NCBI GenBank assembly: GCA_910577505.1
Contig: CAJTLN010000001.1
Location: 385,223 to 449,222, forward strand
Direction: 5' to 3'
Length of the DNA stretch: 64,000 bases
DNA from: an uncultured Bacilli bacterium
GTDB taxonomy: Bacteria > Bacillota_I > Bacilli_A > RF39 > UBA660
The position numbers and the translations under genes were made by a program. Below are positions 37,181 through 45,987 of the stretch, in pieces. The notes beneath the pieces were generated by a model that was given only the letters and a program-made list of their open reading frames with translations, was not told the origin of the DNA and made no database searches. Position 1 is the stretch's first letter. Every line of letters starts with the position of its first letter.

Positions 37181-38550
37181 GTGGTAATAATGAAAAAATG
37201 GTCTATTAGAATTTCTTTAGTAATAATATTTTTTAGTTGTTTAATTTTTACAAATATTTCAAACATAAAAGCTTTAGATGATAAAATTACTATTAATTTT
37301 AGAGTATATGATGAAAGTAATGGAAATGTATATAATGTTGGAAGTGAAGAAATACAAAAATTAGAAAGTTCTACTATTCAATATCATTTGCCTTCTTTAA
37401 GTAGTATTCTCGTTCTTCTGCGTCATATGGAAGAGTTACTAAAGTTGTAGGCAATTGGTATTTCCCCTCACATGACTGTCTTGAAGGAGCAAATGTTGAA
37501 TTTTCAAATGATTCATCACAAAAGACAATTACATATTGGGTAACCTGGTATTTGCCAGGAAGTGGAACAGGATCAGGTTCAAATCAAAGTGGTACAATTG
37601 ATCTGGGCGGTAGTGGTAGATATAGTTTGACCGAAACAATCGTATATCATTCTAATTATCCAAATGGGAAAGACTATACATATACTATTACTTACAAAGT
37701 AAAAGCATATACAACTATGTATAATAGCTTTAATCTTATTAAATCACTAGAGCAACTAAACTTTTCTGTCCCTGATGGATATACATTAAAATCTCCTATG
37801 TGGAGTACAAATAAAAATGGAGGCGGTACAGGATATAATTCGGGAGGTACTTTTGTGTTTTACCAATCAAATAACGGAAAAACAACCCATTTATATGCTC
37901 AATATAAACTTGATAGTATTAATGAAAATCCTATTAGTCCAATAAAATTAACATATATGGATGGAAAAACAGTATATACATCATCAACTCTTTTTGAAGG
38001 AGATACTGTAATCATAAAAAAATGTACAAACAACCATGATGGTTATACTTTTGTTGGTTGGGACACAGCTAACTCAGCACAAACGGTTGTTTATAGACCA
38101 GGAGAAAGTATTACTCTCGAAAAAGATACAACTTTATATGCTGTTTGGGAGAAAGAAACGTTAGATGGACAATATCAAGTAAAATGGTATGATGCAGACA
38201 CTGAAAAAGAGATAAAAGAACCAGCCATTAGAAATGGTACTATTGGAAATATAGTTACTGTAACTGAAGAAGATAAAATAATAGATGAATATATTTTTGA
38301 TGAAACTAATGAAAAGAATGTTCTAAGTAAAGAACTAACTAATTCAGAAACAATTCTAAAACTATATTTTAAAAAGAAAACCGATACATCAGAAACACCA
38401 AATGATTCAGAAGACCCAAATAAACCATCAACAGAAATAGAAAACCCTATAACAGGAGATAACTTAATATTAACAATACTAACTTTTACTATATCAGTAA
38501 TAACTATTACATTCATTAGTAAGAAATATAAAAAGATTAAAAGAATTTAA
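37181..38550 (+). pseudogene. Frameshifted cell-surface protein gene: signal peptide, Listeria-Bacteroides (Flg_new) repeats, MucBP-like C-terminal repeat, sorting-signal-like NPITGD plus TM plus basic tail.
   Basis: Frame 2 ORF 37181-37450 carries the signal peptide. Frame 1 is open from 37405 and carries the rest. The frames overlap at 37405-37450 with no homopolymer. Flg_new signature ...GYTFVGW...TLYAVWE. Confidence 0.5.
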
Positions 38551-38579: not shown

Positions 38580-38749
38580 AAAATCGACAAAAAACGACAA
38601 TAATAAACATTTTTCTAATAAATAGGTATATAAAAATGTCATATGGGAAAAATATAAAAATAAGTAAATAGATGTATAAATAGTATCCTTTATATTGTAC
38701 AAGACAATTATTTGTTTTATACTTTAAATATAGTAGTGGAGTTGATTGT

Positions 38750-40042
38750 ATGAACAAAAAATCATTCATTTCAATTATTTTATTAGTCGGATTTTTATTT
38801 TTATCATTTGCAGTATTAATAAAAAAAGATAATATAAGTCTTAATAATGAATTAGATATACCATATAAAACTAAATACTCAGAAGAAGATGTTGAAACAA
38901 GTATAAGACCATTAGTAAATATTAACTCCAAAAATGATGAAGAATTAAGTCTTTCATCTTTAATTAAAGTAAAAGATTTTCAAGCAAAAGATAATTTACA
39001 GATGATTGCTGAAAAAACTCTTTCTTTTTCTCTTAAATATGATGCTAACGGAGGTTCAGAAGCACCATCAAATCAAACAGCAACATCTACTACAAGCAGT
39101 TATAATTTTATAATTTCCGATAAAGAACCAACAAGAAGTGGCTATGAATTCAAAGGTTGGTCTACTTCATCAACAGATCCATCTCCAAATTACCATGTTG
39201 GAGAAACAATTAATGTGACAGGAACAACAACACTCTACGCTGTTTGGGAAGCAATACCTAGATATTATAATTTAAAAAAGATATTTGTGGGACTAGATGA
39301 AATTGATGATAATTTCTATATGGACTATACTGCAACAGCAGGAGATAAAGAAATCTCAACGAGACTAGATTTAAAAAATGCTGAATTTATTGATGAAGAT
39401 ACTATGACAATAACGTGGAAAGCGCCATACTATTACAATACTGGATATAATAATCAAGTAGTAATAAAAGAACATAGTGATGTTATTGGATATTCATATC
39501 ATGCATCATCGTCCTCTGGAAGTACAGATAAGAATATTATAAGATTTACTCTTAGTTCAATGTTAAGTGGAGCAACAAGAACAATAACTAATTATTACCA
39601 AAAGGATATTTCTAATCAAACTACATACTTAGTAAAGTGGTATAATGCAGACACTGAAAAAGAGATAAAAGATTCAGACATCAGAAATGGTATTATTGGA
39701 AATATGGTTACTGTAACTGAAGAAGATAAAATAATAGATGAATATATTTTTGATGAAACTAATGAAAAGAATGTTCTAAGTAAAGAACTAACTAATTCAG
39801 AAACAATCCTAAAACTATATTTTAAAAAGAAAACTGATACCCCAGAAAATACAGATAATCCAGAAAATCCAGGAGCATCAGAAAATCCAGAAATACCAAA
39901 TGATCCAGAAGATCAAAATAAACCATCAACAGAAATAGAAAATCCTATAACAGGTGATAACTTAATATTAACAATACTAACTTTTACTATATCAATAATA
40001 ACTATGACATACTTTTGTAAAAAAATAACATATAAAGGATAA
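38750..40042 (+). CDS. Cell-surface protein with Flg_new (Listeria-Bacteroides) repeat, MucBP-like repeat and C-terminal sorting signal.
   Basis: Signal peptide MNKKSFISIILLVGFLFLSFAVL. LKYDANGGSEAPSNQ...GYEFKGW...TLYAVWE. C-terminal ENPITGDNLILTILTFTISIITMTYFCKK. Confidence 0.6.
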   Translation: MNKKSFISIILLVGFLFLSFAVLIKKDNISLNNELDIPYKTKYSEEDVETSIRPLVNINSKNDEELSLSSLIKVKDFQAKDNLQMIAEKTLSFSLKYDANGGSEAPSNQTATSTTSSYNFIISDKEPTRSGYEFKGWSTSSTDPSPNYHVGETINVTGTTTLYAVWEAIPRYYNLKKIFVGLDEIDDNFYMDYTATAGDKEISTRLDLKNAEFIDEDTMTITWKAPYYYNTGYNNQVVIKEHSDVIGYSYHASSSSGSTDKNIIRFTLSSMLSGATRTITNYYQKDISNQTTYLVKWYNADTEKEIKDSDIRNGIIGNMVTVTEEDKIIDEYIFDETNEKNVLSKELTNSETILKLYFKKKTDTPENTDNPENPGASENPEIPNDPEDQNKPSTEIENPITGDNLILTILTFTISIITMTYFCKKITYKG

Positions 40043-40165
40043 AAAAATCCTTTTTTATTTGGAAATCTTTTCTAATTAATAATGGATAATAATATCTTTA
40101 TCAAAATAAGAAATAATAATAGTAAGCTTTAACTACCTCACCTCAAAACATAAAGTTATCCACAG

Positions 40166-40194
40166 TTGACAAGTGGTCGGGGGGGGGGTAAAAT
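40166..40194 (+). promoter_or_regulatory. Promoter TTGACA-17-TAAAAT whose spacer contains a G10 homopolymer. Candidate slipped-strand phase-variation switch for the downstream surface-protein gene.
   Basis: ttgaca agtggtc gggggggggg taaaat. RBS AAGGAG at 40208-40213, ATG at 40221. G10 is extremely unexpected in this AT-rich sequence. Confidence 0.6.
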
Positions 40195-40220
40195 ATATTT
40201 AATAGTAAAGGAGTAGACAT

Positions 40221-41780
40221 ATGAAAAGAATAAAAAAAGTTATTTTTTTAAGTTTCTTATTGCTTATTAGTTTTTTTATTAATAGTCAAAATAATTTTTT
40301 GAAAGAAAACGTTATAAGAAACATTGATAGAAATAGTAATCAAAATTTGCCTTCAATTGTTAATGATGAAAATAGTATTATTCAACCACTAGCTTTAGTT
40401 CAAGGAGAAAGCTTTACTGTTAAAGTAGTTAAAGTTGTAAATGGAGCAATAGTAGATTCAAAAACCTTAACATCACGATGTTTACAATCAACAGGACACT
40501 CAGGATTTAATCATTCAACTAACTTGAGGAATCTTGCTAATCAATCAGGATTTTCTGGATACAAAGGGTACAATTGGAGCAAATATACTACAGTTCCTAG
40601 TTCTTATACAACTGGATTAGCACCTAATAATAATTATGCATCAATACATTATAATATAACAGGATCACCTCCATATAAAGGAGATGAAACATTATTTTTA
40701 TTCTTTGAAGCATCACATACATTTCAACTTAAATATGATGCTAACGGAGGTTCAGGAGCGCCAGATTCTCAAACAGCAACATCTACTACAAGCAGTTATA
40801 ATTTTATAATTTCTGATAAAGAACCAACAAGAAATGGCTATGAATTCAAAGGTTGGTCTACTTCATCAACATCTCCATCTCCAAATTACCATGTTGGAGA
40901 AACAATTAACGTGACAGGATCAACAACTCTATATGCTGTATGGGAGCGAGTCACAGAAAAAGTAACTCTAACATATATGGATGGAAAAGAAATTGTAGGA
41001 AATGTTGAAGAATACGAAAAAGGTTCAATAGTAAAGGTAAAATATAATGATAACAATCATGGACAAGCTTATATTTTTCGAGGTTGGGATACTGACCCTT
41101 CTGCTCAAAATGTAGTATATAAACCTAATGCAGAATTTACAATAACAGAAAATACAATTCTTTACGCTGTGTGGTATTTTGCACCAGACTTAGTCACTTT
41201 AGATTACAATCCTAATGGTGGTAAAGATGAACCAGGACTTCAAACAGAGTCATACAATGGAGATAGTGTAACTTTTTCTATTTCTAGAAAAGTACCAAAC
41301 AAAACAGGGTTTAAATTTCAAGGTTGGACTAATAATCAAAAAGATTTAGAAACACCTACTCATCAACCTGGAGGAAAAATAACAACTGATAATGATATAA
41401 TCCTATATGCAGTATGGGAAGAAAGATTAGAAACAGATTATGATTATAAAGTTGAATGGTATGATATAGAAGGTAACCTTATTCAAGAAATCGAAACAAG
41501 AACTGCTCCTCTTGGAGAAAAGATATATGTAAAAGAAGATGATAAAAAAATTGATGGATATATTTTTGCAGAAGATTTTGATAAAAATATTTTAACTGAT
41601 ACGTTAAAAGAACAAGATACGGTATTAAGATTATACTTTTACAAAGTTGAAGAAATCACAGAAAATCCAACAACAAGCGATAAAATAATACCTATCTCTA
41701 TAATAGTAATCTCTTTAATATTACTTATAATATATTTATCAAAGCATAAATTTGTTAGTAAATATTATTCTAACAATTAG
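40221..41780 (+). CDS. Cell-surface protein with three Flg_new repeats, a MucBP-like domain and a C-terminal TM anchor.
   Basis: Signal peptide. Repeats ...GYEFKGW...TLYAVWE, ...IFRGW...ILYAVW, ...FKFQGW...ILYAVWE. C-terminal NPTTSD plus hydrophobic segment plus KHK. Confidence 0.6.
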   Translation: MKRIKKVIFLSFLLLISFFINSQNNFLKENVIRNIDRNSNQNLPSIVNDENSIIQPLALVQGESFTVKVVKVVNGAIVDSKTLTSRCLQSTGHSGFNHSTNLRNLANQSGFSGYKGYNWSKYTTVPSSYTTGLAPNNNYASIHYNITGSPPYKGDETLFLFFEASHTFQLKYDANGGSGAPDSQTATSTTSSYNFIISDKEPTRNGYEFKGWSTSSTSPSPNYHVGETINVTGSTTLYAVWERVTEKVTLTYMDGKEIVGNVEEYEKGSIVKVKYNDNNHGQAYIFRGWDTDPSAQNVVYKPNAEFTITENTILYAVWYFAPDLVTLDYNPNGGKDEPGLQTESYNGDSVTFSISRKVPNKTGFKFQGWTNNQKDLETPTHQPGGKITTDNDIILYAVWEERLETDYDYKVEWYDIEGNLIQEIETRTAPLGEKIYVKEDDKKIDGYIFAEDFDKNILTDTLKEQDTVLRLYFYKVEEITENPTTSDKIIPISIIVISLILLIIYLSKHKFVSKYYSNN

Positions 41781-41828
41781 ATATATAATAAGAGTGTAAC
41801 AATAAAAACATAAACAAAATCTTAAAAA

Positions 41829-41852
41829 AGTCATATCACTATGACTTTTTTC
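41829..41852 (+). terminator. Intrinsic terminator after the third surface-protein gene.
   Basis: agtcata-tcac-tatgact then TTTTTT. Confidence 0.65.
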
Positions 41853-41929
41853 TATTGCAACAATCTATATTTCTTGAAGTTTTTCTATCTATAATTTATA
41901 CTATAAATATAGTAAAGTAGTGTGATTAT

Positions 41930-43737: not shown

Positions 43738-45987
43738 ATGTCTTTTTTATTATTGTTGTTAGTAGTACTTATTGCCATAGAAAATTCCAAATTAAAAAAG
43801 GAAAATATTGAATTAAAAGAAAGACTAAATAACTGGAATCAAGCAAGATTATCTAATAATTATTCAGTATTTCAAAGGACTAATAATACTCAATCAATGC
43901 CTGTTAATGTACAAACTGAAATACAGAACAATCAAAATCAACTTTCTATTTCAAAAAACAATCAAATACAAAAGAAACAATCGCCATCAGCTCTTTTTAT
44001 TATTGGAGCAATTCTAGTAATATTTGCATCCATAATATTTTTATCATCATCATGGATGTTTTTGCCAGGAATAATAAAAACTGTTTTTTTAATAATTCTT
44101 CAATTTATTTTTGGCTTTTTATCAAAAATGTGCCTTGAAAAGTTTTCACTAGATAAGGCTTCTAAAGCTTTTAAATACATTTTTTTAGCTTTCATTCCAG
44201 TTGTTTTACTATCTTTATCATTTTTTGAATTAGTTGGTTATTTCTTATCAATAGGATATGATGGTTTTACATTATATATATCTTTAACCTTTGTCATAAC
44301 ATCTATAATATATAAGTATATTGCTAAAAAAGAAAGTGACTTATTTTTAAATATAATTAGTTTAATTTGTGAAATTTTATCACTAACATTTGCAGTTATT
44401 TTCTTTGAATTTGACATTTTTACATATTTATTAATAATATCAATTTATAATATTATCATTTCTATTCTTTTACAAAAAAATTATTTAGATAAGAGAATTT
44501 ATGAAAAAATAAATCAAATAATGATATATTGTACTTTAATATTTTTAACCTTTTCACTTACATATGGTAAAATAATCTCTCACATAAATGTTATTATTTA
44601 CACAATATATTTCTTATATAATGCCATAAAGTCATCAGAAAAGAAAGAAAAGAAAAAATATACAATATTAAGCTTAATAGGATATACACTTTCTATAAAT
44701 ATAATTAATTTATTACTAAATAATACAGTCTACATAATAAGTTTAATTGCTATATTACCTTTATTTTTATTCAATAAACTTATTCAAGAAGATTATTTAA
44801 AGAAAATTATTATTAACGGAGCAGGTATAATTACTTCTATTATTTTAATATTTATAATTTTTAATCCAGAGAAAACTATAATCTTTATTTTGTCTTTCTT
44901 AATATCGACAATTATTTATGTTATTACATTGTTCTTAAGTAAAAATAATGCATATAAATATTTATCATATTTTAGTTTCTTGTTATTTTTAGCAGCAATT
45001 AACTATATAACAGAAATTGAGACTTTTGGAAAATATATTCCTTTAATAGTAGCATCGATTATCTATTTATTTGAAAGTATTCTTCCTTCTTTAAAAGACT
45101 CAGCATCAAATATAATTATAATTCTACTTATAACTTTAGAATCTATACTTCTGATAAATTCGTATTCAGTTTTAATACCTTTAATATTATTAATTATTTT
45201 TGTAATTACTGAGAAAGAAAAGGATGCCTGTTTAATAGTTCCAATCCTATGTGCATTATCAATCATTTTTATAAAAGATAATATAGTACCTAAGACATTT
45301 GGCTTCTTGACTTCCATTTCTTTAAGTTCAATATCTATTTATAAAAAGAAAGTTAATCAATATTCAATATTATCTCTAATTTATTTCTTTACAATAACAG
45401 TAGCATTTGACTATCCAATAGAAATTCTATTTTTATTAATCCTTATATGGAGTATAACTCATTTTATAATTAACAAAGGAGATAGCAAATTCTATAAAAT
45501 AACAGCTATTATTAGTTTTTTAGGTTTATATACATCTCTTTTACTTAACTCTAACATAGAAATAATATCTTTATATGCTGTTGGTTACTATTTTGGTTTA
45601 ATTTATACAACTAGATACATAATAAAAGATGATTTTATCGATTGTAAGTTTTTAGAATATTATGGATTTTCTATAATAACTTTAATAAGTTTAATAAATA
45701 TTGAATTTATCTATGACGGACTTTTATTAACTATAACTTTAATTGCAATAAGTTTCTTAAGTTACGCATTAAAATATAATTCATATTTTAAAGTATCAAA
45801 TATTTTTATATTTATTAATTTGCTTTTTCTAACGTCTAAATATCTATTCCAAATTCCATGGTATATATATATTTTAATTATTGGCTGCACATTCTTATCA
45901 TACGCTATTTATGATGAAAAAAAGAAAAAACAAGATAGCAGAAATAAATTTAATAAAAATAATAACGAATATATTTATAAAAAATAG
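43738..45987 (+). CDS. Large polytopic membrane protein (hypothetical), ~20 predicted TM helices.
   Basis: 749-aa ORF dominated by hydrophobic helices. N-terminal coiled-coil/Q-rich segment. Confidence 0.4.
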   Translation: MSFLLLLLVVLIAIENSKLKKENIELKERLNNWNQARLSNNYSVFQRTNNTQSMPVNVQTEIQNNQNQLSISKNNQIQKKQSPSALFIIGAILVIFASIIFLSSSWMFLPGIIKTVFLIILQFIFGFLSKMCLEKFSLDKASKAFKYIFLAFIPVVLLSLSFFELVGYFLSIGYDGFTLYISLTFVITSIIYKYIAKKESDLFLNIISLICEILSLTFAVIFFEFDIFTYLLIISIYNIIISILLQKNYLDKRIYEKINQIMIYCTLIFLTFSLTYGKIISHINVIIYTIYFLYNAIKSSEKKEKKKYTILSLIGYTLSINIINLLLNNTVYIISLIAILPLFLFNKLIQEDYLKKIIINGAGIITSIILIFIIFNPEKTIIFILSFLISTIIYVITLFLSKNNAYKYLSYFSFLLFLAAINYITEIETFGKYIPLIVASIIYLFESILPSLKDSASNIIIILLITLESILLINSYSVLIPLILLIIFVITEKEKDACLIVPILCALSIIFIKDNIVPKTFGFLTSISLSSISIYKKKVNQYSILSLIYFFTITVAFDYPIEILFLLILIWSITHFIINKGDSKFYKITAIISFLGLYTSLLLNSNIEIISLYAVGYYFGLIYTTRYIIKDDFIDCKFLEYYGFSIITLISLINIEFIYDGLLLTITLIAISFLSYALKYNSYFKVSNIFIFINLLFLTSKYLFQIPWYIYILIIGCTFLSYAIYDEKKKKQDSRNKFNKNNNEYIYKK

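Follow-up and report, generated by a model that had tools for sequence, protein, structure and literature searches.

Promoters in which a simple repeat lies in the spacer between the -35 and -10 hexamers are an experimentally established design, known from Neisseria meningitidis porA (poly-G), Haemophilus influenzae hifA/hifB (TA repeats), Bordetella pertussis, and Mycoplasma hyorhinis (reviewed in PMC3899988). The amount of porA transcript changes in a graded manner with the number of spacer G's (PMC3899988), and the 17-nucleotide (nt) optimum has been used in engineered meningococcal promoters (PMC4577077). Simple-repeat switches are known mostly from pathogens, namely Neisseria, Haemophilus, Campylobacter, and Mycoplasma, and phase variation of gut commensals mostly from DNA inversions in Bacteroidales and Clostridia. 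A literature search found no report of phase variation in the order RF39 and no paper citing the accessions of the assemblies used here. In this work, we analyzed a 64-kb stretch of the genome of an uncultured RF39 bacterium of the Bacilli (contig CAJTLN010000001.1, positions 385,223 to 449,222), in which a run of ten G's (G10) occupies the spacer of a predicted promoter upstream of a gene for a 519-amino acid (aa) secreted surface protein. This whole stretch is referred to below as the window; all positions follow its numbering, and its GC content is 25.2%.

Structure of the predicted G-tract promoter

The gene is the third of three tandem paralogs, and the elements of the predicted promoter and the gene itself are the following:

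40166-40171, forward strand: -35 hexamer TTGACA, identical to the consensus
40172-40188, forward strand: promoter spacer of 17 nt, consisting of agtggtc and G10
40179-40188, forward strand: G10 homopolymer, the last 10 bases of the spacer, abutting the -10 hexamer; proposed slippage-prone element
40189-40194, forward strand: -10 hexamer TAAAAT, matching the consensus at 5 of 6 positions
40209-40213, forward strand: Shine-Dalgarno sequence AGGAG, 7 nt upstream of the ATG at 40221
40221-41780, forward strand: gene of the 519-aa secreted surface protein, a 519-codon open reading frame (ORF)

The positions of the hexamers, spacer, G10, ribosome-binding site, and start codon had been proposed in a first-pass annotation of the window and were found to be correct base for base. 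The predicted -35 and -10 hexamers enclose the whole tract, and any change in its length alters the distance between them. From the usual distance to the -10 hexamer, transcription is predicted to start at about 40201, giving a leader of about 20 nt. In a consensus scan, the promoter TTGACA-17-TAAAAT scored 11/12 and ranked best in the region of 38-43 kb. Matches of at least 11/12 numbered three on both strands of the window, including the G10 site. Another of the three sits upstream of hsp20, and because of this match the organism appears to use canonical sigma-A promoters of the TTGACA-17-TATGAT type.

A homopolymer survey found a single run of six or more G's or C's in the 64 kb, namely the G10. 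The number of G runs of at least 10 expected in the window from its base composition is 4e-5, and the view that such a tract is essentially impossible by chance, expressed in the first-pass annotation, is thus borne out. The probability that a randomly placed G10 would fall wholly within the 16-18-nt spacer of a promoter scoring at least 11/12 in this window is 3e-4. Since the G10 is unique in 64 kb and its site is one of three matches of this quality, the arrangement is not due to chance. With ten units, the tract is also in the hypermutable range for G/C repeats (about 8 or more). Comparable repeat-based switches were not found elsewhere in the window by the tandem-repeat and homopolymer surveys.

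Other explanations of the element itself were also considered. An RNA element or structure at the tract was rejected, since a search of Rfam gave no relevant match to the promoter region and its folding was no better than that of shuffled sequence (z-score -0.6). A mobile promoter cassette was rejected as well, since no homolog of region 40043-40330 was found in the rest of the window or in the fetched loci. When JGI metagenomes were scanned with the promoter flank CACAGTTGACAAGTGGTCGGG, the two matches obtained were both chance hits in unrelated high-GC DNA. An imperfect short inverted repeat, CCAC...GTGG, is present on either side of the -35 box.

Two hairpins delimit the transcription unit:

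40034-40059, forward strand: weak hairpin and T-run after paralog 2 (stop codon 40040-40042), likely terminator
41824-41857, forward strand: hairpin and T-run 3' of the 519-aa gene, with a 12-bp stem AAAAAAGUCAUA/UAUGACUUUUUU at 41824-41851, likely terminator

The upstream hairpin has a 7-bp stem (40034-40040/40047-40053) with a folding energy of -5.8 kcal/mol and is followed by UUUUUU; its z-score is only -1.3, and transcriptional isolation of the downstream gene by this hairpin is suggestive. The consensus scan of the 178-nt intergenic region (40043-40220) revealed no further promoter match of 9/12 or better. Since hairpins flank the gene and a rival promoter of this quality is missing from the intergenic region, the gene looks monocistronic and dependent on the predicted G-tract promoter.

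Tract length differs between near-identical genomes

An identical or near-identical gene was found in two assemblies besides ERZ778489, the ENA assembly to which the window belongs (the reference assembly below). In GCA_964018015.1, the tract is G9 and the spacer 16 nt, with flanks identical to those of ERZ778489. Over 34 kb, the two assemblies are 99.94% identical and differ by 19 single-nucleotide polymorphisms (SNPs) and four one-base insertions or deletions (indels): G10/G9, A6/A5 at 38589, and two others that are not unambiguously in homopolymers. Four indels placed at random would include one in this 10-nt tract with a probability of about 1e-3. Among the A/T runs of at least six bases, 1/187 differed between the two assemblies; therefore, GCA_964018015.1 is not generally unreliable at homopolymers, and the difference between G9 and G10 is not general homopolymer noise. 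The tract thus varies in length between close genomes with identical flanks, on two full measurements, and this polymorphism can be taken as a first comparative sign of tract instability.

In the third assembly, GCA_965647905.1, the contig begins inside the tract (GGGTAAAAT..., in which three G's precede an unchanged downstream flank). No repeat accounts for this break. The break is consistent with instability of the tract, and a technical cause, such as loss of quality after poly-G, is possible. Seven Logan contigs (L007-L013), which come from the same strain, have a common start at 40880; this start was rejected as a sign of instability since the break is accounted for by exact 31-mers that also occur in paralog 2.

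One of the four indels, a one-base deletion in GCA_964018015.1 near 59694 (position 12630 of locus L057), affects another gene and truncates the 134-aa product of the ORF at 59664-60068 to 107 aa.

The gene encodes a putative adhesin-like surface protein

The 519-aa protein consists of a signal peptide, a beta-rich N-terminal domain, three Flg_new repeats, a beta-rich C-terminal domain, the motif NPTTSD, a transmembrane helix, and a basic tail. The signal peptide MKRIKKVIFLSFLLLISFFINSQNN is typical and has no cysteine within or after it. Flg_new (InlB B-repeat, PF09479) was recognized in three stretches with a Pfam score of 88.4 bits against a gathering cut-off of 27, in agreement with the domain assignment made in the first-pass annotation. 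An AlphaFold model built with 17 sequences had a mean predicted local distance difference test (pLDDT) score of 69. Repeat 1 exceeded 90, the C-terminal beta domain (residues 393-475) reached about 90, and helices were modeled at residues 2-35 and 491-515. Foldseek matched the model to surface proteins of Gram-positive bacteria, namely Lactococcus YwfG, an immunoglobulin-binding protein of Ruminococcus gnavus, and the InlB B-repeat structures 2y5p and 7pv9, with low template modeling scores for a model that has several domains. Matches to the mucin-binding domains of Listeria lmo0835 and the MucBP domain of Lactobacillus LBA1460 were also obtained, as fold-level resemblance only.

The same annotation had described the protein as bearing MucBP and being wall-anchored, and the evidence establishes neither attribute. 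MucBP (PF06458) gave no Pfam match in the whole protein, nor in its C-terminal 120 aa at E-values up to 10, so that just the resemblance of folds is left; PF06458 is present in some homologs. The C-terminus has no LPXTG motif, and sortase was not found among the annotated ORFs of the window, which cover part of it. The C-terminal motif, NPTTSD in this protein versus NPITGD in paralogs 1 and 2, resembles the NPxTG signals of class-B sortases.

The signal peptide, three Flg_new repeats, C-terminal transmembrane helix, and matches to surface-protein folds are the attributes of surface-exposed cargo, and it is reasonable to regard the product as an adhesin-like surface protein on the basis of its sequence and model. 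A secreted, repeat-bearing product fits the reading of the promoter as a switch because contingency loci usually control proteins of this kind.

The tract is confined to one paralog and one lineage

The two other members of the cluster lie directly upstream:

37191-38550, forward strand: paralog 1, split into 86-aa and 332-aa ORFs in different frames; AT-rich upstream region, no G tract
38750-40042, forward strand: paralog 2, 430 aa, with Flg_new; its own AT-rich upstream region, no G tract

The three tandem genes share segments of 89-98% identity and are thus mosaic paralogs, as had been supposed from the first reading of the window. The G tract is restricted to the third of them; paralogs 1 and 2 have AT-rich upstream regions, and these two regions are homologous.

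The tract is also missing from the orthologous locus of the nearest relatives. A sister lineage, in which the neighboring DUF2207 protein is 93% identical and which is represented by nine Logan contigs, has a single 336-aa Flg_new gene at this place. The sister species GCA_011262095.1 (neighbor 62% identical) has a single 482-aa gene, an ortholog of the 519-aa gene that is 58% identical to it from residue 1. The upstream regions of both are AT-rich and contain no G tract. More distant homologs in metagenome-assembled genomes (MAGs) of Lachnospiraceae, including Hungatella, and Peptococcaceae, 58-79% identical over parts of the protein, have no tract upstream either. A scan of a genome collection with the 519-aa protein did not recover the source species; it yielded Flg_new proteins from high-GC genomes, those of Lachnospiraceae among them, and no comparable tract precedes any of these genes. 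Homologs P0012 and P0009, located in genomes of 56-61% GC, also lack it. In the sequences compared, the tract is therefore restricted to one lineage. Because sister lineages have no tract at the same locus, the putative poly-G promoter, judging by these comparisons, arose recently and is limited to a single sublineage.

Among named organisms, the best match to the anaerobic ribonucleotide reductase of this genome comes from Candidatus Coprovivens excrementavium, with 89% identity at the aa level. The genus Coprovivens corresponds to UBA11963 of GTDB (order RF39, family CAG-1000) (PMC8035907) and is classified by NCBI as Bacilli incertae sedis. From the sources of the relatives, the bacterium probably originates from the gut.

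Several features of the paralogs were observed in addition. Paralog 1 is divided into an 86-aa ORF with the signal peptide (37191-37451) and a 332-aa ORF in another frame (37552-38550), the latter being orthologous to the 336-aa gene, which is intact in the sister lineage. The gene is also split in this way in GCA_964018015.1, and the junction contains no homopolymer; paralog 1 is either a frameshifted pseudogene or a recoding site. The direct-repeat motif (T/A)CGACAAAAA(A) occurs upstream of paralogs 1 and 2 (37060-37075 and 38584-38599) and upstream of the sister-lineage ortholog (L045, about 5760-5785), and it may be a regulator site. The A6/A5 difference at 38589 falls in the copy of this motif upstream of paralog 2. 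Paralog 2 contains a 9-nt tandem repeat, CCAGAAAAT, in 5.8 copies at 39842-39893, encoding a Pro/Glu/Asn-rich stalk directly before the C-terminal anchor. This repeat is a possible site of in-frame length variation.

The MAGs that encode proteins 58-79% identical to the 519-aa protein have GC contents of 47-54% (Hungatella, Lachnospiraceae, and Peptococcaceae; L015-L018), and some come from a mouse-gut catalogue. In the Hungatella MAG MGBC105340 (L015, 5800-7400), the gene is a local GC trough of 41-47% versus about 55-60% in the flanks, and the 519-aa gene is slightly richer in GC than its flanks (29-33% versus 20-23%). Since the GC content of the gene departs from that of the flanks in opposite directions in the two genomes, lateral movement of the adhesin module between distant gut Bacillota is suggested.

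Proposed mechanism and alternative explanations

We consider it probable that the locus is a slippage-driven contingency promoter of the porA type that controls a monocistronic surface-protein gene; the switching and its effect on expression are predicted from the sequence. Slipped-strand mispairing at replication would add or remove G's one at a time. With the tract directly adjoining the -10 hexamer, each such event would change the distance between the -35 and -10 boxes by one base and alter nothing else. G10 would give the optimal 17-nt spacing and correspond to the high-expression state, G9 (16 nt) and G11 (18 nt) would lower expression, and with G8 or shorter (15 nt at most) or G12 or longer (19 nt at least) tracts the promoter would be effectively off. 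If the promoter is used, its expression depends on tract length, and switching is reversible and highly frequent, a clonal population would always include cells making different amounts of the InlB-B-repeat adhesin-like protein. The adaptive value of such heterogeneity would be bet-hedging, whether the threat in the gut is host immunity, phage, or a change of niche.

The effect of one-step changes is predicted to be probably graded, like a "volume control," and not strictly on/off, because spacers of 16, 17, and 18 nt are all within the working range of sigma-70/sigma-A promoters; this agrees with the graded behavior reported for porA (PMC3899988). The phase-variation reading put forward in the first-pass annotation is thus retained in part: the spacer architecture and the G9/G10 polymorphism agree with it, and a strict on/off outcome of one-step changes does not follow, as all three spacers are workable.

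A number of points weigh against a contingency promoter. The promoter is a predicted one. Full-length measurements of the tract number two, both of them consensus sequences, and a long G run may have been miscalled in one consensus, which would account for the G9/G10 difference. In GCA_965647905.1, the contig may break at the tract because of quality trimming after poly-G and not because of a mixed population. One-step changes stay at 16-18 nt, so their phenotypic effect may be modest. The tract is missing from the orthologous locus of the sister lineages and could be an evolutionarily young, neutral accident. In about 69 kb of genome, there was no second run of six or more G's or C's and no sign of a genome-wide repertoire of switches.

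In an alternative that we regard as unlikely, the promoter is strong and essentially constitutive, the G run arose recently through a mutational accident or as an insertion scar, and G9/G10 reflects neutral drift with no selected switching. The limitation of the tract to one sublineage, the different AT-rich upstream region of the sister lineages, the lack of other such tracts in about 69 kb, and the workable spacers given by both G9 and G10 would all be expected under this explanation. It is opposed by the very low probability that a G10 would arise by chance exactly within the spacer of an 11/12 promoter at 25% GC and by the fact that the tract accounts for one of only four indels in 34 kb. 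Moreover, runs of 9-10 G's are intrinsically hypermutable in the bacteria where this was measured, and the tract would modulate expression even without selection.

The G run could also be a functional static spacer, acting as a regulator site, a DNA-structure element, or a GC-rich spacer that tunes open-complex formation, with its length being irrelevant. Spacer composition does influence promoter strength, and the imperfect inverted repeat brackets the -35 box. Nevertheless, the element is conserved in no relative, the intergenic region has no homolog in the sequences compared, folding and Rfam gave no indication of structure, and the genomes differ in the length of the tract and not in its sequence, which makes this explanation improbable. 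Least credible of all is an artefact of sequencing or assembly, such as the poly-G produced by two-colour Illumina chemistry, an outcome for which the first-pass annotation had also allowed. Such artefacts exist, and one assembly does break at the tract; however, in the reference assembly the tract is internal to a 638-kb contig with 41x coverage and unique sequence on either side. It is also present in a second, independent assembly (489-kb contig), and the contig of the third begins inside it. In addition, its flanks form a perfect promoter, which is unexpected for an artefact.

Returning to the contingency promoter, a broader picture can be outlined, to which we give an even chance of being correct. 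In RF39 gut Bacilli, relatives of Mollicutes with reduced genomes, a young poly-G contingency promoter, limited to one sublineage and to one of three paralogs, would vary the dose of an InlB-B-repeat adhesin that has close relatives in distant gut Lachnospiraceae, apparently owing to lateral transfer. This would be the first simple-repeat promoter switch for both the order and the protein family. If so, simple-repeat promoter switching is also used by uncultivated commensals with small genomes, the InlB-repeat protein is flagged as a likely target of selection by the host or phage, and tract-length distributions offer a simple metagenomic read-out of the state of a population. The missing tract at the sister-lineage locus makes this a tidy case for studying the origin of contingency loci.

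Other genes of the window

Some genes located apart from the cluster were also noted. In three Logan metagenome runs (SRR32673433, SRR32673434, and SRR32673436), a C-to-A nonsense SNP at 45797 leaves 686 of the 749 aa of a DUF2157-like membrane protein (43738-45987). A complete-looking gene set for non-homologous end joining is present in this small low-GC genome and comprises Ku (6855-7685), an ATP-dependent ligase (7687-8580), and a LigD phosphoesterase-plus-polymerase (8584-10005). At 198-2266, a radical-SAM protein that matches a putative DNA modification/repair family adjoins a DUF4130 protein. The next gene encodes a divergent GroEL-like protein (2230-3816), which scored below the NCBIfam cut-offs for GroEL.

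Comparison with known phase-variable systems

Stochastic heritable switching of surface-molecule genes in commensals is also achieved by the invertons of gut Bacteroidales and Clostridia (PMC7641763). Invertons, unlike the locus described here, operate by site-specific DNA inversion between inverted repeats; since inverted repeats do not flank the G-tract promoter, its identity as an inverton was rejected. Among gut commensals that rely on replication slippage, Bifidobacterium breve has sortase-dependent pilus clusters, an adhesive surface structure with ON/OFF switching (PMC9187656). It differs from the RF39 bacterium in being a high-GC actinobacterium. In addition, the G tract of its pilus genes reportedly lies within the coding sequence and acts by frameshift.

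Closer in design are H. influenzae hifA/hifB with TA repeats and Bordetella pertussis fim with poly-C, where the distance between promoter elements of an adhesin or fimbrial gene is determined by a simple repeat (PMC3899988). These systems differ from the present one in the type of repeat, in promoter layout (bidirectional or activator-dependent), and in phylum. The likeness is greater for N. meningitidis porA (poly-G), opc, and fetA (both poly-C), where a G/C tract of about 9-11 bases lies in the spacer of a surface-protein promoter and a one-base change alters transcription (PMC3899988). The meningococcal loci, however, belong to a Gram-negative proteobacterial pathogen, have porin or outer-membrane cargo and a measured effect on expression, and are numerous per genome, whereas here a single locus with InlB-B-repeat cargo and a predicted effect on expression was seen in an uncultured low-GC member of the Bacilli.

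In lineage, the closest precedent is presumably the vlp system of M. hyorhinis. There, phase variation is governed by a homopolymer between the -35 and -10 hexamers (PMC3899988), and this is likewise combined with a mosaic family of paralogous surface proteins and a small low-GC genome. In contrast to the locus described here, the vlp tract is poly-A, it precedes every vlp gene, and the products are lipoproteins; the RF39 tract is poly-G and is found at one of three paralogs. Since the 519-aa protein has no lipobox cysteine and its tract is not poly-A, membership in the Vlp-type variable lipoproteins of Mycoplasma was rejected. Set beside these systems, the proposed mechanism is a textbook one, and the gain would be in breadth and not in principle.

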